DNA of 64,000 bases, taken from assembly GCF_013122565.1 (NCBI RefSeq), contig NZ_CP053258.1, one strand, 5' to 3'. This document shows positions 20,483 through 37,219 of this stretch, one piece after another. This DNA is from Escherichia coli. GTDB taxonomy: Bacteria; Pseudomonadota; Gammaproteobacteria; Enterobacterales; Enterobacteriaceae. The position numbers and the translations under genes are program-made. The stretch's first letter is position 1; each line of letters opens with the position of its first letter. The notes under the pieces are model-generated. The model saw nothing but the letters and a program-made list of their open reading frames with translations, searched no databases and had not been told where the DNA came from.

Positions 20483-21287
20483 CATGACTCCTTGCTCATC
20501 GCATGAAGACTCCGAGAGTGAACCCCGTTAGAAAGGGTCACACGCATGCCCCAATACAAAATTATTTGCTCGCCTCTATCGTTGCCATTTCATCAAAAGA
20601 GGAAAAGACAATGATAAAAAAGTTGCAAATATGTTAATGAATAAACCAAATTGATCCCGTAATTATATTACGCCGCAAAATCCTTACAATAAACAGGTTT
20701 TTATTGAGCAAATTTGCATTTTTCGACAGTGATCAATTTATAGCGAAATTGTCACGATCTCACCAATTTGATCTACGACAATTTATCGTGTTTTGCAGAT
20801 TTTTTTCAAGAATTAAAAATTGATTTATATCAAAACTAACCAAATATGTTAATTATGTATAAACCATAGATCATTAGTGATTTTATTGTTAATTTATTGT
20901 GAAATATTTATGCAACACAATTATTACAATGAAAAGGTATAGATAAAAAACCAGTGTTGTATTTAACAGAACCGCCTTATCCACTTTTTATAATACCAAT
21001 TGATTAGAGTAGCCAATTTGTTGCTATTTTACATAACATATTTTTATCAAAGTTAATTGATTGTTGCCTTTATGAGCACCGACCGTAAGCCCGTTATGTT
21101 ATTGTTTCATTGGTAATAATCACTTAAATGTATCGATGGAACAGGTATGACTTAGCGGGAGTGATTGTTTCTGAGTGAACAGGGGCCACTTTTGCCTGAT
21201 AAATGAAAAATGAGCGATTTTTGCAAGTTAGTTTTTCTATAGCCGTGTACGCTCAGCGCCTCGCTTGATTACAATGAGGTTGCTGCT
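20483..21287. promoter_or_regulatory. long AT-rich cydA upstream regulatory region, shared with the divergent 314-aa ORF
   Basis: About 800 bp non-coding, strongly AT-rich with several TTGAT/ATCAA-like half-sites; the cydAB promoter region is remembered as long and multi-promoter. Individual sites not resolved. Confidence 0.5.
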
Positions 21288-22232
21288 ATGAGTCCTGATA
21301 ATATCGGTTCGGCTGTCAATCGCTTCTCAGGTTGGCCATCTAATGATCCTCTAAAAACAGATAAAGAATCAACGACATCACCCGTGACAGTGCAGGTAAT
21401 AAAGATGATTGCCGCCATCCTTGACCCACATCGGATAGTCGTTGGAATCGATACACTTTATACAACGCAGCGCGAAACATTTACCTCAGAGAGTCAACAG
21501 CTCATTGAATCAGCATTGCAAACACTTCATGTGATGAATTTAAATAACCTGGAAACAAATCGCGATGAAGAAGGTCACTATCTGGCTTTTGAATATAACG
21601 TTGACACCTCTGACAGAATAACCGTTTCTGCTTACAATGAAAAAAATCCTGGCTGCTATGGCCAATGTCTTTTAATACAGGATGACGAAACAGACTTATT
21701 CAACCTGATAAAAATTAAAATTTTTGAAGCCAGGCATAATTATGTCGCTCAATTGATGAGCGATCCAGAATTTATGTTCAAATTCAGTTATAGCGCTCAA
21801 CAAAATAGATTAGAACCTCATCTTCTGGTTCCCGCTTATTTCCCTCTAAAAACAAACGAACCGGTTACGCAAGAGGATGTACTGTTACTTTATCGTTTCT
21901 TTAAAATGAATGATGATTTTAACAAATTAACATCAGATGAATACATGAGTATCCTGACACCTCTGATGAAGTGTGAGCGTAGCGTCCACGACAACAACAG
22001 GTATGTGACGGGCAAAGATACCCTTCTTCTGGACTATCCTCCTTCTGGTAACCAGATACATTTCCATGTTTTCCCTGACGAATCAGCAACACTAGTCCTT
22101 TATTTTTCAAACAATGACCTTGAATATTTCGTCTTTGAAAGAGATATTCCGAGCCAGTATCGCTTTTTCAAAATGTTTACCAATCTGGCACTGGTTATAG
22201 ATCAGTTAACCGAAGCCCATAAAATACTTTAA
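21288..22232 (+). CDS. hypothetical protein, 314 aa, AT-rich codon usage, no recognisable motif
   Basis: ATG at 21288 with a GAGG RBS 8 nt upstream; Ser/Thr/Pro-rich N-terminus; no family recognised by eye. Confidence 0.55.
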   Translation: MSPDNIGSAVNRFSGWPSNDPLKTDKESTTSPVTVQVIKMIAAILDPHRIVVGIDTLYTTQRETFTSESQQLIESALQTLHVMNLNNLETNRDEEGHYLAFEYNVDTSDRITVSAYNEKNPGCYGQCLLIQDDETDLFNLIKIKIFEARHNYVAQLMSDPEFMFKFSYSAQQNRLEPHLLVPAYFPLKTNEPVTQEDVLLLYRFFKMNDDFNKLTSDEYMSILTPLMKCERSVHDNNRYVTGKDTLLLDYPPSGNQIHFHVFPDESATLVLYFSNNDLEYFVFERDIPSQYRFFKMFTNLALVIDQLTEAHKIL

Positions 22233-22312
22233 TTTTCTATATATCCCTATGGCAAATATTGCTAAACAATGCCTGGGGATTAATTTTTATTACTCACGGA
22301 AAGATTTAAATA

Positions 22313-22735
22313 ATGATATCATCTCAGATCTCTTTCAGTACTCTTCCTGTCAATGCAACATACGCTTCAGAGACAACAGTTGACACACAAAAATTCTCTG
22401 ACATCCTCTACTCAGCGGGGTGTTCCCTAAAGGATATGGCTTATCTGAGCAGATGTCTGGCATCAATACACCCGACTATCGCCAAAAACATTTATGAAAC
22501 AGAAAATCTCAGCGATCAAAAATTACTGCATATTGATTGCCGTAGTACAAATGACATCAAGATAAATATCTTTTTTGGTCAGCAACGAGAAGGATTAATT
22601 GAAATTAGTTCTGACACAGTTATTTTTTCGATACTGTCTTCATTGATTGACTCCGCCATTTCTAAATTTCAACATCAAAACCCGGTTAACGGTTCAGTTA
22701 ATCCTGAACTATTGTATGAGGATTATACTGATTAA
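22313..22735 (+). CDS. hypothetical small acidic protein, 140 aa
   Basis: Co-directional ORF 80 bp after the 314-aa ORF, same AT-rich composition; weak RBS, so the start is uncertain. Confidence 0.45.
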   Translation: MISSQISFSTLPVNATYASETTVDTQKFSDILYSAGCSLKDMAYLSRCLASIHPTIAKNIYETENLSDQKLLHIDCRSTNDIKINIFFGQQREGLIEISSDTVIFSILSSLIDSAISKFQHQNPVNGSVNPELLYEDYTD

Positions 22736-23281
22736 ATCCACCCTGTCGCGAAAAATGGCCTGCGTTATTGCCAGACGTAATAAAACCTTTGATTAACGTT
22801 ACTCATACTGATAGCACCTTCATGTACCTCTCTTTTTTACGCAAATCAAAAGAGCTAACGAAGGTCATAATTCGCATGAATCATTAACCATTTGTTATTT
22901 TCAACATTACTTTTACATTAAGCAGAAATGAATGGTAGTGAAATTCGACTTAAATTTTATGAAATGCATTTACTTATGGCTAAACCCATATCACTAAAAT
23001 GCAAATTAGAAGTAGATCACAAATATCTCAATACACCAAATCAAGTTAATTTTAAAAATTTAACATTCATGACATTAGTTGACATAACACACTGAATTAA
23101 CATGGAAATTTAAAAACACACTTTAAACAATCATTTCCCGAAAGACATTTTGAAAATAGATCAATTGCAACATTACGGTCAGATAAAGACACTCCTGTGA
23201 TATTAAACCTGTGCCGTTATGAACGGCCATAAATACGACGTGTGTAACTTATTTTACTCTCTGTCTTACAAAGGATTACCC

Positions 23282-23731
23282 ATGAAGAAAGCAACACTTG
23301 TGATTGGCGTTATTGGCGCGGACTGCCATGCAGTAGGCAATAAAGTTCTGGACCGCGTTTTTAGCAACCACGACTTCAGAGTCATTAATCTGGGCGTAAT
23401 GGTCAGCCAGGACGAATATATTGATGCTGCCATTGAAACTGGCGCTGACGCGATTGTCGTCTCCTCTATCTATGGGCATGGCGATATCGACTGTCTGGGC
23501 ATGCGCGAACGCTGCATCGAGCGTGGACTGGGGGACATCCTGCTCTATGTGGGCGGTAACCTGGTGGTAGGAAAACATGACTTCGCTGACGTGGAAAACA
23601 AGTTCAAAGAGATGGGATTTGATCGCGTCTTTGCCCCAAGTCATGACTTAGAAGAGGTTTGTCAGCTGATGGCCCACGATATCAACCAACGTCATGACGT
23701 TGATACTCGCATTCTTGAAGAGGCAATCTGA
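23282..23731 (+). CDS. mamA: glutamate mutase sigma (S) subunit, B12-binding (methylaspartate mutase small subunit)
   Basis: ORF 23219..23731 trimmed to the ATG at 23282 after AAGGA; [24 protein letters not shown] carries the DxHxxG cobalamin-binding motif and aligns with clostridial GlmS/MutS. Confidence 0.85.
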
Positions 23732-25119
23732 TGCAAATCGTCTCTGTCGATATTGGATCGACGTGGACCAAAGCAGCCCTCTTCACCCGGGAGGGGGACG
23801 CGTTAACGTTGGTTAACCACGTACTGACCCCAACCACCACCCATCATCTGGCGAAGGGGTTTTTCTCCAGCCTGAACCAGGTGTTAAACGTAGATAATGC
23901 CCTCCCCCTGTTAAACAGCGGTGAGGTTGCATTGAAGTATTCCTCCTCTGCCAAAGGTGGGCTGGCGGTTGCCGCAATGGGATTGGTGCCTTCTATCACC
24001 CTGGAAACCGCGAAAGTAACCGCTCACTCTGCGGGTGCTAAAATTGCGCAATATTACGCCTACAAGCTGAACCGCCGTGATATCCAGGCACTGGAAGAAA
24101 CGCAGCCCGATATTCTCTTGTTCACCGGCGGCACCGACGGCGGAGAAGAAAGCTACGGACTGAATAACGCCCGTGTGCTGGCAGAATCCAAACTCGACTG
24201 CGCCATTATTTATGCCGGAAACCGGGATATTCAGGACGAGGTGCAGGAGATCCTCGGACATAAAGACCTGACCATCGTCGACAACGTTCTGCCCGATCTT
24301 GACCATCCGAACCCTTTAGCCGCACGCCAGGCTATCTGCGACATATTCCTTAAACGCATCGTTAAAGGGAAAGGGCTGGATGTCATTGTTGATAAAACAG
24401 GCGAAGAACCAATGCCGACACCATGGACGGTCTTTGAACTGGTTAAGGCAATCAGTAACGTCGATCACAGCTGGAAAGAGTTCATGCTGATCGACATGGG
24501 CGGCGCAACCACCGATGTCTATTCCGCCTGTGCCAACACGCTCTCGCCCGACACCGTTTTACACGGCGTACCGGAACCCTTCGTAAAACGGACGGTGGAA
24601 GGCGATCTGGGAATGCGCGTCTCGGCAATGGTGGTTGGTGAAAGTGCGAAAGAGTTAGTCAATGTAAATTTTGCTCAGCAACCCGCACAGCTGGACGCTT
24701 TTTATCATTACCTCCGTCATTTAGTCGCTCATCCCGACTACTTACCCGCGAATGCAGAAGAAAAATATTTCGATACCGTCCTGGCCGGACTGTGTGTGGG
24801 TTATGCCACCGAAAGACATGCGGGCACCAAAAAAGAGGTCTGCACCTGCGTCGGCAATGTCGATTTACAAATGGGACGTGACCTGACAACCGTGCGTAAA
24901 GTCGTCGGATCCGGCGGATGGCTCTCGCGTGCCAGTCAGTTCGATATGCATCACTGGTTGAAATACCGCGAGTTAAACGACGACGGTAAACGCATTCTCT
25001 TACCGACCGAATTTGAATATTACCGCGATTCCCGGGGGCTATTACCACTGCTGGCAAACGTCGCCAGAGTCGATCCGCTGGCCGCCGCGCGCACCAGTAT
25101 TCAATGCTTAACCCTATAA
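23731..25119 (+). CDS. glmL: glutamate mutase L protein (GlmL/MutL, putative chaperone/reactivase)
   Basis: 462 aa, starts [18 protein letters not shown] (actin-like ATPase N-terminus); start overlaps the S-subunit stop (tgATG); sits between S and E as in clostridial operons. Confidence 0.8.
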   Translation: MQIVSVDIGSTWTKAALFTREGDALTLVNHVLTPTTTHHLAKGFFSSLNQVLNVDNALPLLNSGEVALKYSSSAKGGLAVAAMGLVPSITLETAKVTAHSAGAKIAQYYAYKLNRRDIQALEETQPDILLFTGGTDGGEESYGLNNARVLAESKLDCAIIYAGNRDIQDEVQEILGHKDLTIVDNVLPDLDHPNPLAARQAICDIFLKRIVKGKGLDVIVDKTGEEPMPTPWTVFELVKAISNVDHSWKEFMLIDMGGATTDVYSACANTLSPDTVLHGVPEPFVKRTVEGDLGMRVSAMVVGESAKELVNVNFAQQPAQLDAFYHYLRHLVAHPDYLPANAEEKYFDTVLAGLCVGYATERHAGTKKEVCTCVGNVDLQMGRDLTTVRKVVGSGGWLSRASQFDMHHWLKYRELNDDGKRILLPTEFEYYRDSRGLLPLLANVARVDPLAAARTSIQCLTL

Positions 25120-25137
25120 CAATTAAGGCTGCAATCA

Positions 25138-26583
25138 ATGGAACTTCGAAATAAGAAATTAACCCATGACGAATTCATGACCGAGCGGCAACAGGTACTG
25201 AAAACCTGGGAAACCGGCAAGGATGTTGAAAATTTTGAAGATGGCGTTAAATACCAACAAACCATTCCTGAGCATAAACGCTTCTCTCTCGCCCTGCTGA
25301 AAGCAGACAAGGAAGGTAAAACCCTTAGCCAACCGCGCGCAGGTGTGGCGCTGATGGACGAACACATCGAACTACTGAAAACACTACAAGAAGAGTGCGA
25401 TCTGCTGCCAAGCACCATCGATGCATATACCCGTCTGAATCGGTACGAAGAAGCGGCTGTAGGGATTAAAAAATCCATCGAAGCCGGAACCTCTAAACTG
25501 AACGGTTTACCGGTAGTTAACCACGGAGTCGCAGCTTGCCGTCGCCTCACCGAAACCCTGCAAAAACCGCTACAGATCCGCCACGGCACGCCAGATGCGC
25601 GTCTGCTGGCTGAAATCTCGATGGCCAGTGGCTTTACCAGTTACGAAGGCGGCGGCATTTCCTACAACATTCCGTATGCCAAACGCGTAACGCTGGAAAA
25701 ATCGATCCGCGACTGGCAGTACTGCGACCGTTTAATGGGGATGTATGAAGAACACGGGATCCGCATCAACCGCGAACCATTTGGCCCACTAACGGGTACG
25801 CTGATCCCGCCGTTTATCTCGCACTCTATCGCCATAATCGAAGGCTTGCTGGCGCTGGAACAGGGTGTGAAATCTATCACCGTTGGTTATGGCCAGGTCG
25901 GCAGCCTGACGCAGGATGTTGCGGCGATCCAGTCTCTGCGTGAACTTGCACATGAATACTTTCAGAGCTATGGCTATACCGACTATGAATTAAGTACCGT
26001 GTTTCACCAGTGGATGGGCGGCTTTCCGGAAGACGAATCGAAAGCGTTCGCTATTATCTCCTGGGGCGCAGCCGTCGCGGGGATGTCTGGTGCCACCAAA
26101 GTCATCACCAAAAGTCCGCACGAAGCCTGGGGTATCCCAACTGCCGCTGCCAACATTCAGGGGCTGAAAGCCTCCCGCCAGATGCTCAACATGGTCAATG
26201 AGCAGAAATTCCCGCCATGCCCTGCGGTTGAACTGGAAATTGAACTGATTAAGAGCGAGGTTCGCGCGGTACTGAATAAAGTGTTCGAACTGGGTAATGG
26301 TGATATTGCGCGCGGTACGGTGCTGGCATTTGAAGCGGGCGTACTGGATGTGCCGTTTGCGCCAGCCGCCTGCAACGCGGGCAAAATTCTTCCGGTCCGT
26401 GACAACACCGGCGCGATACGCGTACTGGAAGCCGGAGCCGTTCCATTGCCAAAAGATATTCTCGACCTCCACCACGATTACGTTGCGGAACGCGCACGCT
26501 GTGAAGGACGCCAACCGACATTCCAGATGGTTGTAGATGACATCAATGCTGTATCCCACAGTAAATTAATAGGAAGACCATAA
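25138..26583 (+). CDS. mamB: glutamate mutase epsilon (E) catalytic subunit (methylaspartate mutase large subunit)
   Basis: 481 aa, starts MELRNKKLTHDEFMTERQQVLKTW; conserved blocks PRAGVALMDEHIELL, HGTPDARLLAEI, FHQWMGGFPEDESKAF match clostridial GlmE. Confidence 0.88.
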   Translation: MELRNKKLTHDEFMTERQQVLKTWETGKDVENFEDGVKYQQTIPEHKRFSLALLKADKEGKTLSQPRAGVALMDEHIELLKTLQEECDLLPSTIDAYTRLNRYEEAAVGIKKSIEAGTSKLNGLPVVNHGVAACRRLTETLQKPLQIRHGTPDARLLAEISMASGFTSYEGGGISYNIPYAKRVTLEKSIRDWQYCDRLMGMYEEHGIRINREPFGPLTGTLIPPFISHSIAIIEGLLALEQGVKSITVGYGQVGSLTQDVAAIQSLRELAHEYFQSYGYTDYELSTVFHQWMGGFPEDESKAFAIISWGAAVAGMSGATKVITKSPHEAWGIPTAAANIQGLKASRQMLNMVNEQKFPPCPAVELEIELIKSEVRAVLNKVFELGNGDIARGTVLAFEAGVLDVPFAPAACNAGKILPVRDNTGAIRVLEAGAVPLPKDILDLHHDYVAERARCEGRQPTFQMVVDDINAVSHSKLIGRP

Positions 26584-27824
26584 TGAAAATAAAACAGGCC
26601 CTGTTCACCGCTGGCTATTCCTCATTCTATTTCGATGACCAGCAGGCGATAAAAAACGGAGCGGGTCACGACGGCTTTTTTTATACCGGGGAGCCAGTAA
26701 CACAGGGGTTTAACGCCGTACGTCAGGCCGGGGAGTGCGTATCGGTACAGTTGATTCTGGAAAACGGCGCGGTCGCTGTAGGTGACTGTGCTGCCGTACA
26801 GTATTCCGGGGCAGGTGGTCGCGATCCACTGTTCCTCGCAGAGCACTTTATTCCGTTCCTCAACGACCATATTAAGCCATTACTGGTAGGCCGCGATGTG
26901 GATACTTTCCTGCCGAATGCCCGTTTCTTCGACAAATTGCGTATTGACGGCAACTTGCTGCATACCGCCGTGCGCTACGGATTATCACAGGCGCTGCTTG
27001 ATGCTACCGCGCTGGCAACCGGCCGTCTGAAAACTGAAGTGGTCTGTGATGAATGGCAGTTGCCACGCGTGGCGGAATCCATTCCATTATTTGGTCAGAG
27101 CGGCGACGATCGATATATCGCCGTCGATAAGATGATCCTTAAGGGCATCGACGTGCTGCCCCATGCGCTGATTAATAACGTCGAAGAGAAGCTGGGCTTT
27201 AAAGGTGAAAAACTGAGCGAATATGTCCGCTGGTTGTCGGATCGCATTCTAAGCAAGCGCACCAGCGCGCGCTACCACCCTACCCTGCACATCGATGTAT
27301 ACGGCACTATCGGTCTGATCTTCGATATGGATCCGCTCCGCTGTGCGCAATACATCGCCAGCCTGGAAAAAGAAGCGCAAGGCCTGCCGCTCTACATCGA
27401 AGGGCCGGTCGATGCCGGTAACAAGCCCGATCAAATTCGCCTGCTGACCGCGATTACCAAAGAGCTGACGCGCCTCGGTTCCGGCGTGAAAATTGTGGCC
27501 GATGAATGGTGTAACACCTACCAGGATATTGTTGATTTCACTGATGCTGCCAGTTGTCACATGGTGCAAATCAAAACCCCGGATCTGGGCAGTATTCACA
27601 ACATCGTCGATGCGGTTCTTTACTGCAACAGCCACAGCATGGAAGCGTACCAGGGCGGCACCTGCAATGAAACTGATGTCAGTGCCCGCACCTGTGTCCA
27701 CGTCGCCCTTGCCGCTCGCCCTATGCGTATGCTGGTAAAACCAGGGATGGGCTTTGACGAAGGCCTCGATATCGTCTTCAACGAAATGAATCGTACTATC
27801 GCGCTGTTGCAGGCTAAGGATTAA
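26583..27824 (+). CDS. 3-methylaspartate ammonia-lyase (beta-methylaspartase)
   Basis: 413 aa, start overlaps the E-subunit stop (taATG); blocks CAAVQYSGAGGRDPLF, FGQSGDDRY, HMVQIKTPDLG, CNET match clostridial methylaspartase (enolase superfamily). Confidence 0.88.
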   Translation: MKIKQALFTAGYSSFYFDDQQAIKNGAGHDGFFYTGEPVTQGFNAVRQAGECVSVQLILENGAVAVGDCAAVQYSGAGGRDPLFLAEHFIPFLNDHIKPLLVGRDVDTFLPNARFFDKLRIDGNLLHTAVRYGLSQALLDATALATGRLKTEVVCDEWQLPRVAESIPLFGQSGDDRYIAVDKMILKGIDVLPHALINNVEEKLGFKGEKLSEYVRWLSDRILSKRTSARYHPTLHIDVYGTIGLIFDMDPLRCAQYIASLEKEAQGLPLYIEGPVDAGNKPDQIRLLTAITKELTRLGSGVKIVADEWCNTYQDIVDFTDAASCHMVQIKTPDLGSIHNIVDAVLYCNSHSMEAYQGGTCNETDVSARTCVHVALAARPMRMLVKPGMGFDEGLDIVFNEMNRTIALLQAKD

Positions 27825-27827
27825 CAA

Positions 27828-29198
27828 ATGGCTCGTTCTTTTAAAGTCTTATCGCCAACGGCAATCCTCGGGTATGGATTCCCGGAAGAGAGCTTCCGCA
27901 AAGCGATGGCAGAATCGCCCGATCTGATCGCCGTTGATGCCGGCTCTTCCGATCCAGGCCCCCACTACCTCGGGGCAGGCAAACCGTTTACCGATCGCGC
28001 AGGGGTCAAGCGCGATCTGCGCTATATGATCACCGCAGGCGTGCAAAATAATATACCGGTGGTGATCGGAACGGCTGGCGGTTCTGGTGCCGCACCACAC
28101 CTGGAGTGGTGCCGAGAAATAATTCATGAGATTGCCCGGGAAGAGCACCTCTCGTTCTCGATGGCGTTGATCCCGGCAGACGTTGACAAAGCCATCGTCC
28201 ACCAGGCGCTGGATAACGGCAAAATCACGGCGCTGGATTTTGTCCCGCCGTTAACCCACGACGCGATTGACGAAAGTACGTATATCGTTGCGCAAATGGG
28301 CATCGAACCCTTCCAGCGGGCTCTGAAAGAAGGCGCGCAAGTGGTGCTGGGCGGGCGCGCTTACGACCCGGCCTGCTTTGCTGCGCTCCCGATCATGCAA
28401 GGCTTTGATGAAGGTCTGGCGCTGCATTGTGGGAAAATCCTTGAGTGCGCAGCAATCGCCGCAACGCCCGGCTCAGGCTCTGACTGTGCGATGGGCATCA
28501 TTGATGACAACGGCTTTACGCTGAAGACATTTAATCCGAAGCGTAAATTTACCGAAACGTCAGCAGCTGCACACACACTGTATGAAAAATCCGATCCCTA
28601 CTTCCTGCCAGGACCTGGCGGCGTGTTGAACCTGAAAGGCTGCACATTTAAAGCAGTCAATGACGGCGAAGTCTACGTCAGCGGTTCTAAGCATGAAGAA
28701 ACGCCGTATGCCCTGAAACTGGAAGGTGCACGACGGGTGGGCTTCCGCTGTCTGACCATCGCCGGAACGCGCGACCCGATCATGATCGCCGGGATCGATA
28801 AAATCATCGATGAAGTCAAAATCAGCGTTTCGCGTAACCTGTCGCTTGACGATGACAGCATTCGCATCAATTTCCACCTGTACGGCAAAAACGGGGTGAT
28901 GGGCGACCATGAACCGATGCAAACTACCGGGCATGAGCTGGGGATTGTCCTTGATGTAGTTGCACCGACCCAGGAAATTGCCAACAGCGTTTGCTCGCTG
29001 GTGCGCTCTACCATGCTGCACTACGGCTATGAAAACCGCATCGCTACCGCAGGCAACCTGGCGTTCCCGTTCTCCCCTTCTGATATCCAGGGCGGGCCGG
29101 TATACGAATTTTCCATATATCACCTGATTGAAGCCAACGACGCTCTGCGTTTTGATTTCCATATTGAACAGGTGACGCCAGAAGGAGTTCAGGTATGA
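27828..29198 (+). CDS. uncharacterised protein, 456 aa (tentatively AtuA-like/DUF1446-type; family not verified)
   Basis: ATG at 27828 with AAGGA 7 nt upstream, 3 bp after the methylaspartase stop; Gly-rich, no cofactor motif recognised by eye. Confidence 0.6.
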   Translation: MARSFKVLSPTAILGYGFPEESFRKAMAESPDLIAVDAGSSDPGPHYLGAGKPFTDRAGVKRDLRYMITAGVQNNIPVVIGTAGGSGAAPHLEWCREIIHEIAREEHLSFSMALIPADVDKAIVHQALDNGKITALDFVPPLTHDAIDESTYIVAQMGIEPFQRALKEGAQVVLGGRAYDPACFAALPIMQGFDEGLALHCGKILECAAIAATPGSGSDCAMGIIDDNGFTLKTFNPKRKFTETSAAAHTLYEKSDPYFLPGPGGVLNLKGCTFKAVNDGEVYVSGSKHEETPYALKLEGARRVGFRCLTIAGTRDPIMIAGIDKIIDEVKISVSRNLSLDDDSIRINFHLYGKNGVMGDHEPMQTTGHELGIVLDVVAPTQEIANSVCSLVRSTMLHYGYENRIATAGNLAFPFSPSDIQGGPVYEFSIYHLIEANDALRFDFHIEQVTPEGVQV

Positions 29199-29512
29199 AA
29201 CAGTCAATTGTCTCACTGGCGCAAGTCATTCGTTCGAAAAATGCCGGTCCTTACGAACTGGTTTTAGATATTTTATTTAAAACGAAAGAAAACTATGAGC
29301 GAGTTAAATCATCAGGGCAATTAACCCCAGAACTGATTGCGCGCTTATATCATGTTGAACCTGACTTTATTCATCGTATTGTCTGGTTTGATCCTTCTAA
29401 CGCAGTAAAAATCGTCATGCCACGAGATATTATCTCCGGGAATGTAGGTGACAATGATGTCTATGGTGCACAGCAACATGCACCTTTATTAAATATGAGT
29501 TTCGATTTGTAA
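29195..29512 (+). CDS. uncharacterised small protein, 105 aa, translationally coupled to the preceding ORF
   Basis: ATG at 29195 overlaps the upstream stop (ATGA); no recognisable motif. Confidence 0.55.
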   Translation: MKQSIVSLAQVIRSKNAGPYELVLDILFKTKENYERVKSSGQLTPELIARLYHVEPDFIHRIVWFDPSNAVKIVMPRDIISGNVGDNDVYGAQQHAPLLNMSFDL

Positions 29513-29672
29513 AAATCCGAACACTTTTAGCCAACTGACATCCCATCACTTATTGCAGTTCAACACTTCAGCTATTTGTAAGGTTGTAATAGCAGGTAGA
29601 TGCCTGAGTCTCTATTCAGGCATCTACTTCTCCTGATTCTGATTTATCGCCGTGCACCTGATGGAGGAAAAA

Positions 29673-30953
29673 ATGAAGAAAATAAGTTTAACCACGATGA
29701 TTCTTTTGGCGCTGGTACTTGGAATGATTATCGGCGTAGTGCTCAATAACACTGCTTCACCGGAAACCGCAAAACTCTATGCGCAAGAAATATCGATATT
29801 CACGACGATTTTCTTACGACTGATAAAAATGATTATCGCTCCGTTAGTGGTCTCTACCCTGGTGGTAGGTATAGCTAAAATGGGCGATGCCAAAGCCCTT
29901 GGTCGTATTTTTTCTAAAACACTTTTTTTATTTATTTGCGCCTCATTGCTGTCAATTGCCTTAGGCTTGATAACAGTAAATTTCTTCATGCCAGGCACAG
30001 GAATTAATTTTGTTGCACACGGAGCCGAAACCACCGGAGTGGTCGCGTCAGAACCCTTTACGCTAAAAGTATTTATTTCGCATGCTTTCCCCACCAGCAT
30101 TGTCGATGCCATGGCGCACAATGAAATTTTGCAAATCGTGGTGTTCTCAATTTTCCTCGGCTGTAGCCTGACGGCGATTGGCGAGAAAGGCAGCGCCATC
30201 GTTCACGCCTTAGATTCGCTGGCACATGCCATGTTAAAGCTCACTGGCTACGTCATGCTCTTCGCTCCCCTGACCGTATTCGCCGCTATTTCAGCATTGA
30301 TTGCTGAACGAGGACTGGCAGTTATGGTGAGCGCCGGGATCTTTATGGGTGAATTTTATTTCACCATGTTGTTACTTTGGGTACTGCTTATCGGTCTGGC
30401 CATCGTTTATGTCGGCCCCTGCATCAGACGCCTGACCCGCGCCCTTTCGGAACCCGCCCTGCTGGCATTTACCACATCCAGTTCTGAAGCGGCTTTTCCG
30501 GGAACGCTTGAAAAACTGGAGCAATTTGGCGTTTCCCCCAAAATTGCCAGCTTTGTCTTACCCATTGGCTACTCATTTAATCTCGTTGGATCAATGGCCT
30601 ACTGCTCCTTCGCCACAGTTTTCATCGCCCAGGCCTGCAATATCCATTTATCCATCGGTGAGCAAATCACCATGCTGTTGATCCTGATGTTGACCTCGAA
30701 AGGAATGGCTGGCGTACCACGCGCCTCAATGGTGGTTATCGCCGCCACGCTCAACCAGTTCAATATTCCGGAAGCAGGGCTGATCTTGCTGATGGGCGTT
30801 GATCCGTTCCTTGATATGGGGCGTTCCGCGACAAACGTCATGAGCAACGCAATGGGCGCTGCGATGGTGAGTCGGTGGGAAGGCGAACATTTCGGCGAGG
30901 GCTGTCGGGGTAAAGCATTAAAACCCAATGAATCGAACGTTGCTCTGCCCTGA
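29673..30953 (+). CDS. dicarboxylate/amino acid:cation symporter (GltP/DctA family), candidate glutamate or C5-dicarboxylate transporter
   Basis: ORF 29652..30953 trimmed to the ATG at 29673 after GGAGGA; polytopic, with the family serine-rich motif (TTSSSEAAFPGTLEKLE) as in GltP. Confidence 0.8.
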   Translation: MKKISLTTMILLALVLGMIIGVVLNNTASPETAKLYAQEISIFTTIFLRLIKMIIAPLVVSTLVVGIAKMGDAKALGRIFSKTLFLFICASLLSIALGLITVNFFMPGTGINFVAHGAETTGVVASEPFTLKVFISHAFPTSIVDAMAHNEILQIVVFSIFLGCSLTAIGEKGSAIVHALDSLAHAMLKLTGYVMLFAPLTVFAAISALIAERGLAVMVSAGIFMGEFYFTMLLLWVLLIGLAIVYVGPCIRRLTRALSEPALLAFTTSSSEAAFPGTLEKLEQFGVSPKIASFVLPIGYSFNLVGSMAYCSFATVFIAQACNIHLSIGEQITMLLILMLTSKGMAGVPRASMVVIAATLNQFNIPEAGLILLMGVDPFLDMGRSATNVMSNAMGAAMVSRWEGEHFGEGCRGKALKPNESNVALP

Positions 30954-31060
30954 GGGGGATCTTAAGCAATCAGAAGCCAATGACTACGCATTTTTATAAG
31001 CCGGATCATGAAGTTAGACGGCAATTAAGTAACACTAACGTTTAAGGTGAAAAGTGAAAT

Positions 31061-32713
31061 ATGTCCAAACCATTTATCTGGCAAGAACCGTTTCTACAAA
31101 ATAAAGACGGTACAGAATATACATTAATTAGCGATCAACATATTACAGTAACGGAATTAGACGGCGAAGAAGTGATAAAAATCGCTCCTGAAGCATTAAC
31201 GCTGCTTGCCCGGCAGGCATTTTATGAAGCCTCTTTTTTCTTACGTTCCGCTCATTTGCAACAGGTCGCCAGCATTCTTAACGATCCGCAGGCCAGTAGT
31301 AATGATAAATACGTTGCGTTGCAGTTATTACGTAATGCTGAAGTCTCAGCAAAAGGGGTATTACCCAACTGTCAGGATACCGGCACCGCAACTATTGTTG
31401 CCAGGAAAGGGCAACAGATATGGACCGGAGGTAACGACGCTGAAGCCTTAAGCAAAGGCATTTACACCACTTTCCAGGAAAATAATCTGCGCTTTTCACA
31501 AAATGCGCCGCTGGATATGTATACCGAAGTCAATACGCAAACCAATCTCCCGGCGCAGATTGATATCAGCGCCGTCGCTGGTGATGAGTACCATTTTCTC
31601 TGTGTTAATAAAGGGGGCGGCTCCGCCAATAAAGCCACGCTTTATCAGGAAACCAAATCCTTATTGCAACCAGAAAAACTGACCGCATTTTTAATCGAAA
31701 AAATGAAATCGCTGGGCACCGCTGCCTGCCCGCCTTACCACATCGCCTTTGTCGTCGGAGGGCTTTCAGCCGATCAAACCTTAAAAGTTGCCAAGCTGGC
31801 TTCTACGAAATATTACGACAATTTGCCCACCAGCGGAAACGAGCAGGGACAAGCATTCCGTGATATTGAGCTGGAAAAAGTGATGCTCGAGGCCAGTCAG
31901 CAATTTGGTATTGGTGCGCAATTTGGGGGTAAATATTTCGCTCATGATATTCGCGTCATTCGTCTGCCGCGTCACGGTGGCTCCTGCCCGATAGCTATGG
32001 CGCTCTCCTGTTCAGCCGATCGCAATATCAAAGCAAAAATTAACAAGCACGGTATCTGGCTGGAAAAACTCGAACACAATCCGGGGCAATATATTCCAGC
32101 CTCACTATGGGAAGAAAATCACGCGCAACATGTACAACTGGATCTAAACCGTCCGTTGCGTGACGTGATGCAGGATCTCGCCAGATTACCGGTAGGTACC
32201 CGCGTGTCGTTAAGTGGTCCCATCGTAGTGGCGCGCGATATCGCCCACGCCAAAATAAAAGCGCGGCTGGATAGCGGCGAATCGATGCCGGAGTACCTGA
32301 AGCATCATATTGTCTATTACGCTGGCCCGGCGAAAACACCGGAGAACATGGCCTGCGGTTCACTAGGTCCAACCACGGGCGGTCGAATGGACGGTTATGT
32401 CGATACCTTCCAGGCTGCTGGCGGCAGTCTGGTGATGTTATCGAAAGGTAACCGCAGCCAGCAGGTCACCGATGCCTGTCACAAACATGGTGGCTTCAAT
32501 CTGGGAAGTATTGGCGGTGCAGCTGCGTTACTGGCGCAAGAATATGTCAAAAGTCTGCGTTGCCTGGAATACCCGGAGCTGGGTATGGAAGCGGTGTGGA
32601 TGATGGAAGTGGAAAATCTGCCCGCATTCATCCTGGTAGATGATAAAGGCAATAATTTCTTTAGTCAGTTTGAGCAGCAACACCGCTGCGCCAGTTGCCC
32701 TGCGGGACATTAA
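31061..32713 (+). CDS. class I (Fe-S) fumarate hydratase family protein, FumA/FumB paralogue; candidate mesaconase
   Basis: 550 aa, full-length similarity to FumA as remembered (blocks [55 protein letters not shown]); context suggests mesaconate hydration. Confidence 0.85.
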
Positions 32714-32722
32714 GGAAAATGA

Positions 32723-33325
32723 ATGGAAGCGCGAATTTCAACTGAACGGCATGTGCAGCGCCAGCAGAAATTGAAGGAACAGGTCGATACGCGCGTCGCG
32801 GCGGCGATAGAGAAAAAAGGGATCTTGATTGTTTTCACCGGCAATGGCAAAGGGAAATCCACTGCCGCGTTTGGTACGGTGACGCGCGCGGTGGGTCATG
32901 GCAAAACGGTGGGGGTTGCGCAGTACATCAAGGGGCAATGGGACAACGGCGAATACAACCTTCTCCAGCCGCTCGGGGTTGAGTTTCATATTATGGGAAC
33001 CGGTTTTACCTGGGAGACACAGAACCGGCAAGCGGATATCGACGCGGCGAAAGAGGTCTGGTCGGAAAGCAAACGGATGCTGGCTGACAAGCGTTACGAC
33101 TTAGTGGTGCTTGATGAGCTGACCTATATGCTGGCTTACCATTATCTGGATACCGAAGAAGTGATCGCTTCTCTGCAAAACCGCCCGGCACAACAAAGTG
33201 TCATTGTCACCGGACGCGGTTGCCACAGTCAGATATTAAAAATGGCGGATACGGTCAGCGAAATCCGCCCCGTCAAACATGCTTTTGATAACGGCATTCA
33301 GGCCCAGCCGGGTATCGACTGGTAA
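32723..33325 (+). CDS. cob(I)alamin adenosyltransferase, BtuR/CobA-family paralogue
   Basis: 200 aa with P-loop GNGKGKSTAAFG and full-length similarity to BtuR as remembered; AAGGA RBS; last gene of the operon. Confidence 0.85.
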   Translation: MEARISTERHVQRQQKLKEQVDTRVAAAIEKKGILIVFTGNGKGKSTAAFGTVTRAVGHGKTVGVAQYIKGQWDNGEYNLLQPLGVEFHIMGTGFTWETQNRQADIDAAKEVWSESKRMLADKRYDLVVLDELTYMLAYHYLDTEEVIASLQNRPAQQSVIVTGRGCHSQILKMADTVSEIRPVKHAFDNGIQAQPGIDW

Positions 33326-33328
33326 TAA

Positions 33329-33356
33329 CTGCGCCTGGCATCCCGCCAGGCGCAGG
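33329..33356. terminator. bidirectional terminator between the B12-operon end and the convergent LysR gene
   Basis: Perfect 11-bp inverted repeat ctgcgcctggc / gccaggcgcag around a 5-nt loop, followed by gtttt. Confidence 0.7.
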
Positions 33357-33358
33357 TT

Positions 33359-34264
33359 TTACATCTCCTGCGGTACGACCGATTTCGCCAGCAACCATTC
33401 ACGAAATTGCTGCAAGTGCGGCGAGTCAGACTTCTCTTCCTGCCACGTCATAATAAAACGATTACCGGTACGAATAGGCACATCACAGGGAATCACCATA
33501 TCGCCACTATCCAAATCATGTTGAATAGCGAACCGTGGTAACAGCGCCACGCCGAGATTAGAGCGCACGGCGGCAATCAACATTGAAAGCAAATCGAAAC
33601 GTGGCCCGTTGTTGACCAGCGGACTGCTAACGCCAGATAAAGCAAACCACTCTTCCCAGCCAGTAATACGGGTGCTTTGATGCAGAAGTGGTAACTCAGT
33701 AAGCAGTTCTGCCACTGACAGTTTTTGATCGGACATTGCAAGCAAACTGCCGCTGCATACCGGCAAAATCTCCTCTTCAAAGAGATATTCTACTTCCGCC
33801 CAGGGCGCGCAAAAATTTTCGCGCATAATGACAGCATCGTACTCCCGATTAAGAAAATCGCCGTTATTAGCTAAAGAATGAATATTAACAATAATATCGG
33901 GATGTAACTTTGTGAATTCATGTAAATTTGGGATTAACCAGTGGGTACTAAAAGTAGGATTAACGGCAAGTTCAATAACCTGAACCGTAGGCTGCCAGGT
34001 CATAATGGTATTGGTATCGCGTTCCAGCTTATTTAATGTTTCTTTTACTATCCCCAGGTAATACTTCCCTGCATCATTAAGAAAAATACGTTTTTTAGAG
34101 TGTGAAAATAACGGAGTACGTAAAAATTCCTCCAGCGCACTTACTTGTCTGAATACTGCACTTTGGGTTAACGCTAACTCCTCTGCCGCTCTGGTATAAC
34201 TTTCATGACGTGCGACGACCTCAAAAGTCACCAGCAGTTCCGTTTTAGGTATTTTTCCTCGCAT
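33359..34264 (-). CDS. LysR-family transcriptional regulator
   Basis: ORF 33359..34294 trimmed to the Met after a ggaagg RBS (MRGKIPKTELLVTFEVVARHESYTRAAEELALTQSAVFRQVSALEE is a typical LysR HTH); about 301 aa. Confidence 0.85.
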   Translation of the reverse strand: MRGKIPKTELLVTFEVVARHESYTRAAEELALTQSAVFRQVSALEEFLRTPLFSHSKKRIFLNDAGKYYLGIVKETLNKLERDTNTIMTWQPTVQVIELAVNPTFSTHWLIPNLHEFTKLHPDIIVNIHSLANNGDFLNREYDAVIMRENFCAPWAEVEYLFEEEILPVCSGSLLAMSDQKLSVAELLTELPLLHQSTRITGWEEWFALSGVSSPLVNNGPRFDLLSMLIAAVRSNLGVALLPRFAIQHDLDSGDMVIPCDVPIRTGNRFIMTWQEEKSDSPHLQQFREWLLAKSVVPQEM

Positions 34265-34854
34265 AATGCCTTCCGTGAAAAAATAACAATTCAAAAAATT
34301 ATTTTATAAAAAACAGTAGCGCTAATGAATATCATAATTCAAATAAACAAACCAGTCAGCTATATGTCTAACCAGGAAAATAAAGTGACAATAATCCTAA
34401 AACAGGAATTTCACCTCAGTTATCCGCATGCAATGCTTTAAAGCCATTATTGCAAGAATATTATTCATATACATGAATATACTCTAAATAAGTCGAGTTG
34501 GAGGAAGGGAACAAATAATGAATTTCCAGAAGCTTACATAAGTAAGTGACCTGGGTGAGCGAACATCGATGCAGCACATGCAACTTGAATTATGACAAGT
34601 ATACAATGATAAATTTAGATACCCTATGTTATATATTATCTATGTCCGGTTAAATTGAATGAGTCATGGCCTTCAAAGACATCGCAAAAGATAATTTCTC
34701 TTTAACAATAAGCCAGATTTACCACTTGTAAAAATTGCTATCGCCACATACACTACGCGCGTTTTCTTTCCCTTTTGCTGGCTGCTGACCGGAAAGACAA
34801 AATTACCCTCGCAATACAGGGGGTTGTTTAACGTCTATATTTCAGGACAGCGTT

Positions 34855-36252
34855 ATGCATCATCTTTCAAGGCTTGATAAAGCCTTTCTGCGCAAAGGGA
34901 TCCAACTTTCCCGCGCCAACAATATTGTTTCATTATCTCGTCCATCAGGTGTCAGTGCCCGCGTACTGCTGCCAGACGAACTGCCGCTGGAAGAAAAAGC
35001 AGTAACACAACTGCTTGATTTTGCAGAAGTGAAGCTACCAGACCACCCAGGTTATGTACGCCAGACGTGTGCGACGCCAGATTTTCATCCCGGCAATGGC
35101 GTCCCCGTTGGCGCGGTGGTAGCCTCAACGCCGGATTTAGTCATTCCCGCCGCCATCGGCACCGATATTTCTTGTGGCATGCGGCTGCTGACGACCGGAA
35201 TAACACTTGAGCAAGCCGAAGCGCATAAAGACGTCATCACTCAGCGGTTAACGCAAGTGTTACTGCAAAATGAGCGCGATGTTCCGTTATCTGCACGAGC
35301 GTTCACCGCGCTTTTTGATGGCGGGCCGGCAGATTGCATGTCGGCCTTGCCATCAGCAGGTCTCTGGACACGCACGAATATCCCCCGAATGGTACAAGAG
35401 ATTGACCGCTGCATTGGGCTGAACGAGCATAAAAGTCATTCGCGTTATGCCCCACCCGCCCTGCTGGCAACGGACCGCGCATTACTCCGCGACCCTTGTC
35501 TGGGTACGCCGGGTTCAGGTAATCATTTTATTGAACTTCAGGTAGTTGATAGCGTGATCGATCGCCATGTAGCCTGGCAACAAGGGCTGAAAACAGGCGA
35601 TATCGTGGTGATGATCCATAGTGGATCGCGAGATGTCGGCTTTTACGTCGGACGACGCTGGACGGACCGTGCCCGCGCAGACTGGCCCGCTGGGCATAAA
35701 CATCCACAAAGCGGGTTATATGGTCTGGCTGGTGGACTGGCGGAGGAATATCTACAAGCGATGGGAATGGCGGCGCGTTACGCATGGTTAAATCGCGTGA
35801 CCATTACGGAAATGGTGCGCGTATGTTTTGCCGATTTATTCCATCAGGATGAATCACATCTGGTGGTGGATGTGCCGCATAACATCATCCTTCGCGAGCA
35901 TGAGATGAATATTCATCGCAAAGGCGCAACACCGGCACGTGCGGGCGATCTGGCGTTAATCCCCGGTTCAATGGGCGATTATTCGTGGCTTGCGGTAGGT
36001 TGCGGCAACCCGGAGTGGTTGTGGTCATGCAGTCACGGAGCAGGACGCAGCCAGCGTCGGCAGGCCATGCGCGCACACGCGACTGAAGAGTCAACGCTGC
36101 CGTGGCAATGCGTAACACTGCGTGAAGAACGGCGTATTGAGGAAGCGCCAGCTGCTTATAAAGATATTGGTCCGGTTATCGAAGCCCAACAAGAAGCTGG
36201 ATTAATTCAGCCAGCGGTCAGATTTCGACCGTGGTTAACGTTTAAGGCATAA
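34855..36252 (+). CDS. RtcB-family RNA ligase paralogue (465 aa, N-terminally extended)
   Basis: Motifs typical of RtcB: PDFHPGNG, GTDISCGM (cf. GVDIGCGM), and HGAGR near the C-terminus; divergent from the LysR gene across 590 bp. Confidence 0.75.
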   Translation: MHHLSRLDKAFLRKGIQLSRANNIVSLSRPSGVSARVLLPDELPLEEKAVTQLLDFAEVKLPDHPGYVRQTCATPDFHPGNGVPVGAVVASTPDLVIPAAIGTDISCGMRLLTTGITLEQAEAHKDVITQRLTQVLLQNERDVPLSARAFTALFDGGPADCMSALPSAGLWTRTNIPRMVQEIDRCIGLNEHKSHSRYAPPALLATDRALLRDPCLGTPGSGNHFIELQVVDSVIDRHVAWQQGLKTGDIVVMIHSGSRDVGFYVGRRWTDRARADWPAGHKHPQSGLYGLAGGLAEEYLQAMGMAARYAWLNRVTITEMVRVCFADLFHQDESHLVVDVPHNIILREHEMNIHRKGATPARAGDLALIPGSMGDYSWLAVGCGNPEWLWSCSHGAGRSQRRQAMRAHATEESTLPWQCVTLREERRIEEAPAAYKDIGPVIEAQQEAGLIQPAVRFRPWLTFKA

Positions 36253-36274
36253 AAAAGGCCATCATACGATGGCC
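36251..36274 (-). terminator. rho-independent terminator of the sdh-suc transcript / SdhX
   Basis: Hairpin ggccatc-gtat-gatggcc followed on the minus strand by a U-run (plus-strand aaaaaa at 36251-36256); begins immediately after the RtcB-like stop codon. Confidence 0.75.
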
Positions 36275-36349
36275 AACCATGTCGAAACCGACAGCCCTTC
36301 GCCATTCCTGTAGAGGGAAGCGGCGAGGGCTATTTCTTATTACAGATAT
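36251..36349 (-). ncRNA. sdhX: putative SdhX (RybD) sRNA from the sucD 3' UTR
   Basis: About 100 nt between the sucD stop (36350) and the terminator; contains ...caggaauggcgaagggcugucgguuucgacaugguuggccaucguaugauggccuuuu, which matches my recollection of the SdhX 3' region. Confidence 0.5.
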
Positions 36350-37219
36350 TTATTTCAGAACAGTTTTCAGTGCTTCACCGATATCCGCCAGGCTGCGAAC
36401 GGTTTTCACGCCTGCGGCTTCCAGAGCCGCGAATTTCTCATCCGCAGTCCCTTTCCCACCGGCAATGATGGCACCTGCGTGGCCCATACGTTTGCCTTTC
36501 GGCGCAGTCACACCAGCGATGTAACCTACAACTGGCTTGGTAACGTGCTCTTTGATGTACGCTGCTGCTTCTTCTTCAGCGCTACCGCCGATCTCACCGA
36601 TCATCACGATCGCTTCGGTCTGCGGATCTTTTTCGAACATTTCGAGGATGTCGATAAAGTTAGAGCCAGGGATCGGGTCACCGCCGATACCAACACAGGT
36701 CGACTGACCGAAACCGTAATCCGTGGTCTGTTTAACCGCTTCATAGGTCAGTGTACCGGAACGGGAAACGATACCCACTTTACCCGGTTTGTGAATGTGA
36801 CCAGGCTGGATACCGATTTTGCATTCACCTGGGGTGATAACGCCCGGGCAGTTCGGGCCGATCATACGAACGCCGGCTTCATCCAGTTTCACTTTCACAG
36901 TCAGCATATCCAGCGTCGGGATGCCTTCAGTGATGGTGATAATCAGTTTGATGCCTGCGTCGATGGCTTCCAGAATGGAGTCTTTGCAGAACGGTGCTGG
37001 TACGTAGATAACAGAAGCGGTAGCGCCAGTGGCAGCAACGGCTTCACGCACGGTGTTGAACACCGGCAGGCCGAGGTGGGTGGTGCCGCCTTTACCTGGG
37101 GTTACGCCGCCAACCATTTTAGTGCCGTATGCAATAGCCTGTTCTGAGTGGAAAGTCCCCTGGCTACCGGTAAAACCCTGGCAGATAACCTTGGTGTTTT
37201 TATCAATTAAAATGGACAT
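36350..37219 (-). CDS. sucD: succinyl-CoA synthetase alpha subunit
   Basis: 289 aa, [45 protein letters not shown]. Confidence 0.95.

Follow-up and report, generated by a model that had tools for sequence, protein, structure and literature searches.

The question raised by this locus is whether the DNA between cydA and sucD in a 64-kb stretch of Escherichia coli sequence (contig NZ_CP053258.1; the whole stretch is called the window) is a recent gain or an old resident that K-12 lacks. In the window, 13 open reading frames (ORFs) lie between these two genes, and none of them is present at this site in K-12. Nine of them form an operon for glutamate breakdown by way of 3-methylaspartate, and the others are two AT-rich orphans (hypA and hypB), a LysR-type regulator gene, and a gene for an RtcB-family RNA ligase. 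An initial annotation had read all of these as one accessory block replacing mngR-mngA-mngB. The best explanation, and a probable one, is instead an old resident polymorphic locus with a complete pathway and a modular history, which varies by flank recombination and deletion. The operon would have been long resident in the cydA-sucD interval of the Escherichia-Salmonella-Citrobacter-Klebsiella group, and would have been retained in about 21% of E. coli while being missing from K-12-like lineages.

The age of the operon at this site was judged from a cross-genus scan, in which the methylaspartase protein was compared with one genome per GTDB species, giving 80 loci. In 21 of the 80, cydB and/or cydA stands directly upstream of glmS. 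These syntenic loci belong to Escherichia whittamii, Escherichia sp. E1V33, MOD1-EC7003, many Citrobacter species, the Klebsiella oxytoca group, Salmonella (Salmonella arizonae/diarizonae; S. enterica subsp. arizonae), and Pseudescherichia vulneris and its relatives. Wherever the flank reaches far enough, sucD comes after lysR. In Enterobacter, Lelliottia, Buttiauxella, Yersinia, Hafnia, and Morganella, the operon has a different location. Within E. coli the proteins are 99% identical to those of the window; the value drops to 95-96% for other Escherichia, to 91-94% for Salmonella, Citrobacter, and Klebsiella, to 87% for Pseudescherichia, and to 76-80% for Yersinia and Morganella. A neighbour-joining tree of the GlmE, MAL, CmlA, and FumD proteins has a monophyletic Escherichia with Pseudescherichia as the outgroup, as in the CydAB tree of the flank.

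The composition of the operon is also that of the core. Its guanine-plus-cytosine (GC) content is 0.49-0.55 per gene, except for cmlB (DUF4387) at 0.38, and that of the window overall is 0.51. Within E. coli, the synonymous divergence (dS) of the operon genes is mostly 0.02-0.08, compared with 0.02-0.04 for cydA and 0.04-0.05 for sucC. Since the synteny recurs across genera, and since GC and within-species dS match those of the flanks, the operon looks ancestral. The simplest reading is long residence with repeated loss, not recent gain. Synteny and divergence are direct observations, and the direction of change is inferred from them.

The operon runs from glmS to cobO (coordinates and profile scores are given in Table 2). 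The identities of the glm, mal, fumD, and cobO genes were judged against curated NCBIfam cut-offs (equivalog or subfamily). glmS, glmL, glmE, and mal are contiguous on one strand (23282-27824), all four are above their equivalog cut-offs, and GlmS carries the B12-binding DxHxxG motif as DCHAVG in its translation. FumD of the window is 98% identical to the O157:H7 orthologue (ECs0757), which has been characterised as a mesaconase (Kronen & Berg 2015, PMC4682846). The symporter orthologue is named 'dicarboxylate/amino acid:cation symporter' in RefSeq, and the transporter of the cluster is drawn as GltP in Fig. 5 of PMC4682846. The LysR gene is kept beside the operon across genera.

The two genes that follow mal are members of the AtuA/DUF1446 and DUF4387 families and overlap by 4 bp. 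The product of the former matches chain A of PDB entries 9ERQ and 9EVF (E = 5.5e-291, about 91% identity by eye, residues 1-455), which was deposited as 'Citramalate lyase, subunit A (cmlA)'. The DUF4387 protein matches 9ERQ chain B (E = 5.2e-57), deposited as 'Citramalate lyase, subunit B (cmlB)'. A cmlA-type gene comes next after mal in loci from many phyla. No paper on function came up in a whole-word literature search for the names DUF1446 and DUF4387. A preprint reports that the Raoultella planticola CmlAB enzyme cleaves (S)-citramalate to pyruvate and acetate. The AtuA-like and DUF4387 pair can be labelled as the putative citramalate lyase CmlAB.

Judged by homology, the nine genes and the convergent LysR regulator would encode a complete methylaspartate (mesaconate) pathway, because each step has a homology-assigned enzyme and CmlAB closes the end. 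Glutamate would be imported by the gltP-like symporter and turned into (2S,3S)-3-methylaspartate by the adenosylcobalamin-dependent GlmSE, with GlmL predicted to reactivate the mutase and CobO to adenosylate its cofactor. Methylaspartate ammonia-lyase would then remove ammonia to give mesaconate, FumD would hydrate mesaconate to (S)-citramalate, and CmlAB would perform the last step of the route. On these assignments, the pathway would presumably be active in this strain. The ratio of nonsynonymous to synonymous divergence (dN/dS) of the operon genes is 0.00-0.28, except for three window-CP52E comparisons that rest on 0-2 synonymous differences (fumD 0.87; DUF4387 and cobO undefined), and all operon genes are under purifying selection.

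The window contains the enterobacterial methylaspartate-pathway cluster, which is already published. Its genes, their order, and their chromosomal position are the same as in the O157:H7 cluster of Kronen & Berg (PMC4682846), and the methylaspartase locus of pathogenic E. coli mentioned in the initial annotation is this arrangement. The features given in Fig. 5 of PMC4682846 are all found in the window, namely fumD with mal and glm, DUF1446 after mal, a GltP-type transporter, a CobA-type adenosyltransferase, and LysR. Compared with an O157:H7 genome, the window has 98.7% nucleotide identity over 17500-34282, and its proteins are 95-100% identical. The two differ between lysR and sucD, where hutH and RtcB survive only as remnants in O157:H7; in the window, RtcB is intact and the spacer is another one. 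According to Kronen & Berg, 26.5% of E. coli and 90.6% of O157:H7 strains have mal and glm; the function of DUF1446 and the fate of citramalate were left open in 2015 (PMC4682846).

The clostridial pathway (Clostridium tetanomorphum, C. tetani) has the same chemistry, from glutamate through 3-methylaspartate, mesaconate, and (S)-citramalate to pyruvate and acetate. Its cluster comprises homologous GlmS, GlmE, and GlmL (MutL) together with methylaspartase, as in enterobacteria (PMC4682846), and glmS, glmE, and mal of Firmicute loci are 55-61% identical to those of the window. In contrast to the two-subunit mesaconase MesAB and the citrate-lyase-like citramalate lyase CitDEF of clostridia (PMC4682846), the enterobacterial cluster has a single-chain FumD, an unrelated AtuA/DUF4387-type CmlAB, and additionally the transporter, CobO, and LysR.

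Within E. coli, 5,426 complete genomes were surveyed, and 5,425 of them have the flanks on the cydA and sucD sides. How many genomes are counted depends on the megablast coverage threshold: window 18000-38500 is covered to 80% or more in 1,115 genomes, and the LysR end of the block is matched by 1,125-1,131, or about 21%. The operon is an accessory (variably present) cluster of E. coli at an otherwise conserved locus. An O157-type LysR-sucD junction occurs in 836 genomes, a LysR-hutH junction in 145, and the window-type LysR-RtcB spacer in 144, which together make 1,125 carriers. The exact arrangement of the window was found in 20 of the 5,426 genomes, and a partial-RtcB/TPR form in 6 more. 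The window's arrangement is rare, yet it is one combination of known modules in a known polymorphic locus. The architecture classes (Table 1) were read from a handful of annotated example loci, comprising seven E. coli types and an eighth that was seen separately.

Table 1. Architectures of the cydA-sucD interval in E. coli.
Type	Arrangement
K-12 type	cydA-[mngBAR]-sucD
R8 type	cydA-[TPR][mngBAR]-sucD
GmF067 type	cydA-[TPR]-sucD
O157:H7 type	cydA-[hypAB-operon-LysR]-sucD
Ecol_881 type	cydA-[..LysR][hut][RtcB]-sucD
CP52E type	cydA-[..LysR][RtcB][mngBAR]-sucD
Window type	cydA-[..LysR][RtcB]-sucD
SCU-172-like type	cydA-[..LysR][partial RtcB][TPR]-sucD

The relation of the operon to mngRAB follows from these arrangements. 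K-12 mngR-mngA-mngB, for a mannosylglycerate phosphotransferase system and hydrolase, lies in the same interval as the window block and has the same right junction at the sucD terminator. Its genes are unrelated to the operon, and CP52E-type genomes hold both. The order in CP52E is cydA-block-RtcB-mngB-mngA-mngR-sucD. The RtcB-mngB junction occurs in 134 genomes, and a tandem of the operon, RtcB, and mngBAR is present in at least 118 and up to 134. In Citrobacter sedlakii and one C. amalonaticus, mngBAR stands between cydA and glmS, on the opposite side of the operon. Because of the tandem genomes, mng and the operon are not mutually exclusive, and mngRAB is a neighbour module, not an alternative allele of the operon. 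The mng modules are 91-96% identical between E. coli lineages.

Several claims of the initial annotation stand after this comparison and others do not. The gene inventory agrees between ORF calls and family profiles (two AT-rich orphans, the nine-gene glutamate mutase/methylaspartase operon, LysR, and RtcB), and the per-gene GC check separates the core-like operon from hypA and hypB. The survey places the block in a minority of E. coli, and K-12-like genomes have mngB-mngA-mngR alone in the interval and not the same 13 genes. No mngA, mngB, mngR, hut, or TPR homologue was found by tblastn in the entire window, in agreement with the absence of mannosyl-glycerate genes noted earlier. Replacement of mngRAB is contradicted by the CP52E tandem, by the RtcB-mngB junctions, and by the Citrobacter mngBAR beyond the operon. 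The single block also dissolves into at least three modules with separate histories, namely hypAB, the operon with LysR, and RtcB.

The Escherichia interval would have gained the AT-rich hypA-hypB module on the cydA side. Compared with E. whittamii and E1V33, hypAB is an indel of 1.75 kb (21129-22875). The homologues of hypA are close ones only, with 64-98% identity and at the same locus, and a search of 5.8 billion proteins gave five clusters of close relatives and no remote family. hypA has no NCBIfam, PADLOC, PHROGs, or PDB match and no significant Pfam match; hypB has no NCBIfam, PADLOC, or PHROGs match (Pfam and PDB were run for hypA only). In PADLOC, the products of hypA and hypB, RtcB, CmlA, and CmlB are all without a match, with no sign of a defence system. 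The dN/dS is 0.26-0.62 for hypA and 0.16-0.21 for hypB, and hypB is frameshifted in CP52E. A diverged Escherichia-like locus (L087, a contig of Logan SRR11658232, 7196-10781) has cydA, a hypA homologue (64%), a gene for a 258-amino-acid (aa) protein, and sucD, and no operon; the 258-aa protein has no Pfam match and is outer-membrane-like by eye.

On the sucD side, the interval would have gained a histidine-utilisation (hut) module and the stand-alone RtcB. The motifs GTDISCG, GSGNHF, MIHSGSR, VPHN, and SHGAGR of RtcB align with Pyrococcus horikoshii RtcB, and the metal-binding Asp, Cys, and His positions and the guanylylated His are conserved in that alignment; the aligned P. horikoshii positions are presumably D95/C98, N202/H203, H234, H329, and H404. 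The dN/dS of RtcB is 0.13-0.14, and its alleles have a dS of 0.14-0.18, compared with 0.02-0.08 in neighbouring genes. Assignment as the RtcB of the rtcBA-rtcR operon was rejected (NF007153 202 bits against 407; its neighbours are only lysR and sucD), and so was assignment as the PrfH-associated RtcB2 (TIGR03073 165 bits against 272; no adjoining prfH).

Remnants of this side are found in several lineages. hutH and RtcB remnants lie between lysR and sucD in O157:H7 (L002, 16786-17291), E. whittamii (L070, 15966-16998), and E1V33 (L009, 12295-13222). Four pieces make up the O157:H7 spacer: the lysR-hutH intergenic region with the hutH 3' end (87.6% identity to Ecol_881), another fragment of hutH, a fragment from inside RtcB, and the final 44 bp of RtcB. 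E. whittamii and E1V33 have their own, differently truncated hutH and RtcB remnants, with hutU as well in E. whittamii. The window, Ecol_881 (hut type), and the O157 remnant all have one and the same RtcB-sucD junction sequence. Because of the lineage-specific remnants and this common junction, the comparison points to operon-hut-RtcB as the probable arrangement before these Escherichia lineages split; remnants and junctions are read directly, and the ancestral order is the part inferred. The hut pathway yields glutamate, so that hut beside a glutamate-degrading operon would make functional sense.

The window itself has hypAB, the operon, and an intact RtcB, and is without hut and mngRAB. The window and the CP52E type have a 464-bp spacer (34283-34746) in place of hut. 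Within 34477-34603, this spacer carries the core AAGTAAGTGACCTGGGTGAGCG, which has 2 mismatches to what is taken here to be the core of the enterobacterial repetitive intergenic consensus (ERIC), with 0 matches expected by chance. Copies of the ERIC-like repeat with 74-83% identity occur in the MOD1-EC7003 and Yokenella loci, three in the former (L010, near 5104-5972) and one in the latter (L049).

The core flanks have histories of their own. Over 420 nt on the upstream side of cydA, the alleles of the window, O157:H7, the hut type, the TPR types, MOD1-EC7003, E1V33, and E. whittamii have 92-99% identity to one another, whereas the K-12-like allele is 74-76% identical to all other Escherichia alleles, which is as distant as Salmonella or Citrobacter. 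The cydA coding sequence is 99% identical despite this upstream divergence of K-12 (window 20486-20892 against locus L006, 2984-3391), and the window's cydA has 99-100% identity with alleles of E. coli, compared with 96-97% for those of other Escherichia species. FNR-like boxes of the TTGAT-N4-ATCAA type, such as TTGATATAAATCAA, are kept in every cydA upstream allele. On the other side, the dS of sucD within E. coli is 0.09-0.15, compared with 0.04-0.05 for sucC (37219-38385), with no amino-acid change in sucD. This excess is consistent with recombination tracts ending in sucD, and the divergence of mng and sucD is taken as a sign of old, recombining haplotypes around the hotspot.

Both edges of the variable locus were located by aligning the flanks with K-12, enterohaemorrhagic E. 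coli, and other Escherichia. The right boundary is precise to the base, as the initial annotation had stated: six aligned locus architectures all become identical from AAAAAAGGCCATCATACGATGGCC onward, on the sucD terminator side. The terminator hairpin of sucD, GGCCATCGTATGATGGCC, lies at 36274-36257 on the minus strand with TTTTTT after it, and this T-run contains the stop codon of RtcB (36250-36252). The small RNA (sRNA) SdhX is produced from the 3' end of sdhCDAB-sucABCD (PMC6393394). An Rfam search at a permissive threshold over 17000-39500 gave no match in the block and no SdhX family. The extent first given for the block (20483-36252, about 15.7 kb) is corrected at its left end, which is the homologous upstream region of cydA. 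Positions 20486-20892 are 76-78% identical to the K-12 cydA upstream region, and the DNA without a K-12 counterpart is 20893-36246, or 15.35 kb. Compared with TPR-type E. coli, E. whittamii, and Escherichia sp. E1V33, the cydA-upstream homology reaches 21123/21128 at 90-95%.

Mobility was considered from both the window and external records. As the initial annotation had noted, integrases, transposases, flanking repeats, and a tRNA site were each looked for and not found: the 13 ORFs include no integrase or transposase, the tRNA check of the window found none, flanking direct or inverted repeats do not exceed chance length, and microhomology or repeats able to explain the junctions are chance-length matches only. 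The phage records gave no match to the block. Among 72,556 plasmid records (PLSDB), full-length matches were found in NZ_CP134663.1 and NZ_CP141089.1 (4.9 Mb each) and in CP088669.1 (730 kb), and a 416-kb Salmonella plasmid record matches the block at 79.5%. The 4.9-Mb records are judged to be chromosome-sized and the 730-kb record to be a misfiled chromosomal piece. None of these matches was taken to show mobility. A classical genomic island, integrative element, or prophage was rejected on the lack of a tRNA, mobility ORF, repeats, or a true plasmid or phage copy, and on the core-like GC of the operon. The locus would vary by deletion and by homologous recombination in its conserved flanks, not by site-specific integration; because no phage or true plasmid copy is found, this is the best available mechanism.

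The locus can be compared with the integrase-free recombination hotspots of E. coli, in which, reportedly, the accessory modules between a given pair of core genes vary (Touchon et al., 2009). It resembles them in its many module combinations between fixed core genes, its lack of mobility genes, and the deep allelic divergence nearby. It differs in that its largest module is a cross-genus syntenic cluster and no recent import.

Some findings weigh against long residence of a complete pathway. In E. whittamii, dS is 0.43-0.84 in the operon compared with 0.12-0.20 in the flanks, and in MOD1-EC7003 nucleotide identity is 80-86% in the operon compared with 96% in the flanks. This excess divergence between Escherichia species may partly be due to codon-bias constraint on the cyd and suc genes, and it also fits some allele replacement by recombination. 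The Klebsiella oxytoca group is nearer to Citrobacter in the operon tree than in the flank tree, and because of this difference in placement some inter-genus transfer of the operon is likely. Operon remnants were looked for in the K-12-type cydA-mngB spacer and none were found, so that loss in the K-12-like lineage is deduced from outgroups. The assignment of CmlAB is based on the names given in PDB deposits and on a single preprint. In O157:H7, Kronen & Berg detected neither expression of the cluster nor methylaspartase activity under the conditions tried, and glutamate did not support growth (PMC4682846).

The alternative that comes closest to the initial annotation is that a K-12-like ancestor recently acquired a 15.7-kb island through recombination in the flanks on the cydA and sucD sides, with mngR-mngA-mngB displaced in that one event. 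mngBAR of K-12-like genomes is exactly where the window has its block, with the right junction common to both, and most operon carriers are without mng (836 + 145 + 20 + 6 of 1,125). Recombination in the flanking core is a reasonable route given the lack of mobility genes, and it is still the most plausible way in which the locus varies. The direction implied by taking K-12 as the reference is not borne out, however. The operon occupies the interval in at least five genera, in synteny with cydA and sucD, its GC and within-species dS are core-like, and the block goes with the cydA upstream allele of other Escherichia species, K-12 having the outlier. With the tandem genomes added, and with hypAB, the operon, and RtcB differing in distribution and divergence, which makes a single event improbable, this alternative is unlikely.

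The shared position could also be that of a preferred target, into which the operon was inserted repeatedly and independently in different genera. This would fit the Klebsiella oxytoca-group operon, which clusters near the Citrobacter freundii complex in the operon tree and not in the flank tree, the location of the operon elsewhere in the six genera named above, and an operon divergence greater than that of the flanks between Escherichia species. It is very unlikely, as no site-specific machinery or repeats were found, protein identity drops in step with taxonomic distance, and the accessory genes (glsA, sumT, and a PocR/AraC-like regulator) vary from genus to genus, which is what local divergence would produce. 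Homologous recombination through flanks that are 12-17% diverged is, moreover, strongly disfavoured. That the block is a decayed mobile genomic island, with its integrase and att sites erased, has hardly any probability left. The AT-rich hypA, hypB, and intergenic spacers (GC 0.29-0.39), typical of horizontally acquired DNA, and the ERIC-like repeat in the LysR-RtcB spacer speak for it. Against it, the window was found to contain no tRNA, no integrase, no fragment of a transposase, and no flanking repeat, and a search of the phage records and of 72,556 plasmid records gave no copy on a phage or a bona fide plasmid. The AT-rich part is, furthermore, only the 1.75-kb hypAB module, which is itself at the same locus in diverged Escherichia lineages.

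The old resident locus may have a more specific history, which is put forward tentatively. The ancestral Escherichia interval could have been a histidine-to-glutamate-to-pyruvate/acetate supercluster (hut, operon, hypAB, and RtcB) that is now decaying, and the K-12 type, which has mngBAR alone and makes up about half of E. coli, could be an imported replacement haplotype, from an unsampled distant relative, with a xenologous cydAB regulatory region. An origin of the K-12 haplotype by replacement rather than by deletion is plausible.

The features of the interval and its flanks are collected in Table 2.

Table 2. Features of the cydA-sucD interval in the window (positions of the 64-kb stretch; UTR, untranslated region; IRU, intergenic repeat unit).
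Feature	Position	Strand	Evidence or remark
cydA	18914..20485	-	ORF; left core flank; protein 99-100% identical to E. coli CydA; RefSeq orthologous loci are cydA
cydA upstream regulatory region, Escherichia-type allele	20486..21123	.	homologous DNA, outside the inserted part
hypA, AT-rich orphan, 314 aa	21288..22232	+	GC 0.39
hypB, AT-rich orphan, 140 aa	22313..22735	+	GC 0.37
glmS, glutamate (methylaspartate) mutase B12-binding subunit S	23282..23731	+	NF002612 253 bits against cut-off 110
glmL (mutL), mutase accessory/reactivating protein	23731..25119	+	NF040745 511 bits against 475; TIGR01319 895 bits
glmE, glutamate mutase catalytic subunit E	25138..26583	+	TIGR01503 866 bits against 390
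mal, 3-methylaspartate ammonia-lyase	26583..27824	+	TIGR01502 544 bits against 286
cmlA (AtuA/DUF1446 family), putative citramalate lyase subunit A	27828..29198	+	PDB 9ERQ/9EVF chain A match
cmlB (DUF4387), putative citramalate lyase subunit B	29195..29512	+	PDB 9ERQ chain B match
gltP-like dicarboxylate/amino acid:cation symporter, presumed glutamate importer	29673..30953	+	DctA/GltP models 304-314 bits, below equivalog cut-offs
fumD, class I fumarase acting as mesaconase	31061..32713	+	NF011921 1274 bits against 1060
cobO/cobA-type ATP:cob(I)alamin adenosyltransferase	32723..33325	+	NF004637 296 bits against 185; TIGR00708 247 against 168
terminator-like hairpin between cobO and convergent lysR	33329..33355	+	11-bp stem with 9 GC pairs, then T-rich tail
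LysR-type regulator, GcvA-like	33359..34294	-	NF008352 221 bits, below cut-off 288; RefSeq start 34264
ERIC/IRU-like repeat, about 127 bp, LysR-RtcB spacer	34477..34603	.	ERIC-core match
stand-alone RtcB-family RNA ligase paralogue	34855..36252	+	full-length Pfam PF01139 match, residues 63-464, E = 1.9e-95
sucD 3' UTR with intrinsic terminator (SdhX/RybD sRNA region)	36253..36349	-	fixed right boundary of the variable locus
sucD	36350..37219	-	ORF; right core flank; protein 100% identical to E. coli SucD

Other genera add genes of their own to the cluster. Klebsiella has a secreted glutaminase (glsA) between the transporter and fumD (L017, 14482-15483), Citrobacter has a SumT-like methyltransferase added to the operon (L026, 17277-18949), and Citrobacter and Salmonella arizonae have a regulator that looks PocR/AraC-type by eye between lysR and sucD (L043, 18090-18992). 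These genus-specific extras agree with the Fig. 5 legend of PMC4682846. Two contigs of metagenome-assembled genomes, labelled Collinsella sp. (L007) and Citrobacter sp. HRGM_Genome_0066 (L008), have 98.6% and 97.7% nucleotide identity to the window operon, and the latter also has E. coli-type hypAB; both look like E. coli contigs binned into wrong genomes.

Beyond sucD, two elements of the repetitive extragenic palindromic/bacterial interspersed mosaic element type (Rfam naRNA4, 74 and 50 bits) lie at 38474-38635 between sucC and sucB, in a spacer whose length varies among the compared E. coli loci. The region 40000-62000 (sucA, sdh, the ybg fimbrial genes, dtpD, and phrB) has a best identity of 97.2% among the 5,426 genomes, which means either that the collection holds no close relative or that the region is a mosaic of diverged alleles. 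This low value had suggested that the DNA came from an Escherichia species other than E. coli, a reading rejected on the identity of cydA to E. coli alleles (99-100%, against 96-97% for other species of the genus).

The comparison corrects a reference-genome bias: K-12 is the strain without an old enterobacterial glutamate-catabolic operon, and the window has gained no exotic island. The locus is a clean worked example of an integrase-free hotspot that gains and loses modules between two fixed core genes. For annotation, the 'AtuA family' and 'DUF4387' genes found here can be called citramalate lyase CmlAB, a label that closes the end of the pathway left open in 2015. The K-12-type upstream allele of cydAB may be of interest to the field of respiratory regulation, because most regulatory work has been done on that allele. 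If the K-12 haplotype is indeed imported, cytochrome bd-I could be under different oxygen control in operon-positive strains than in K-12-like ones.

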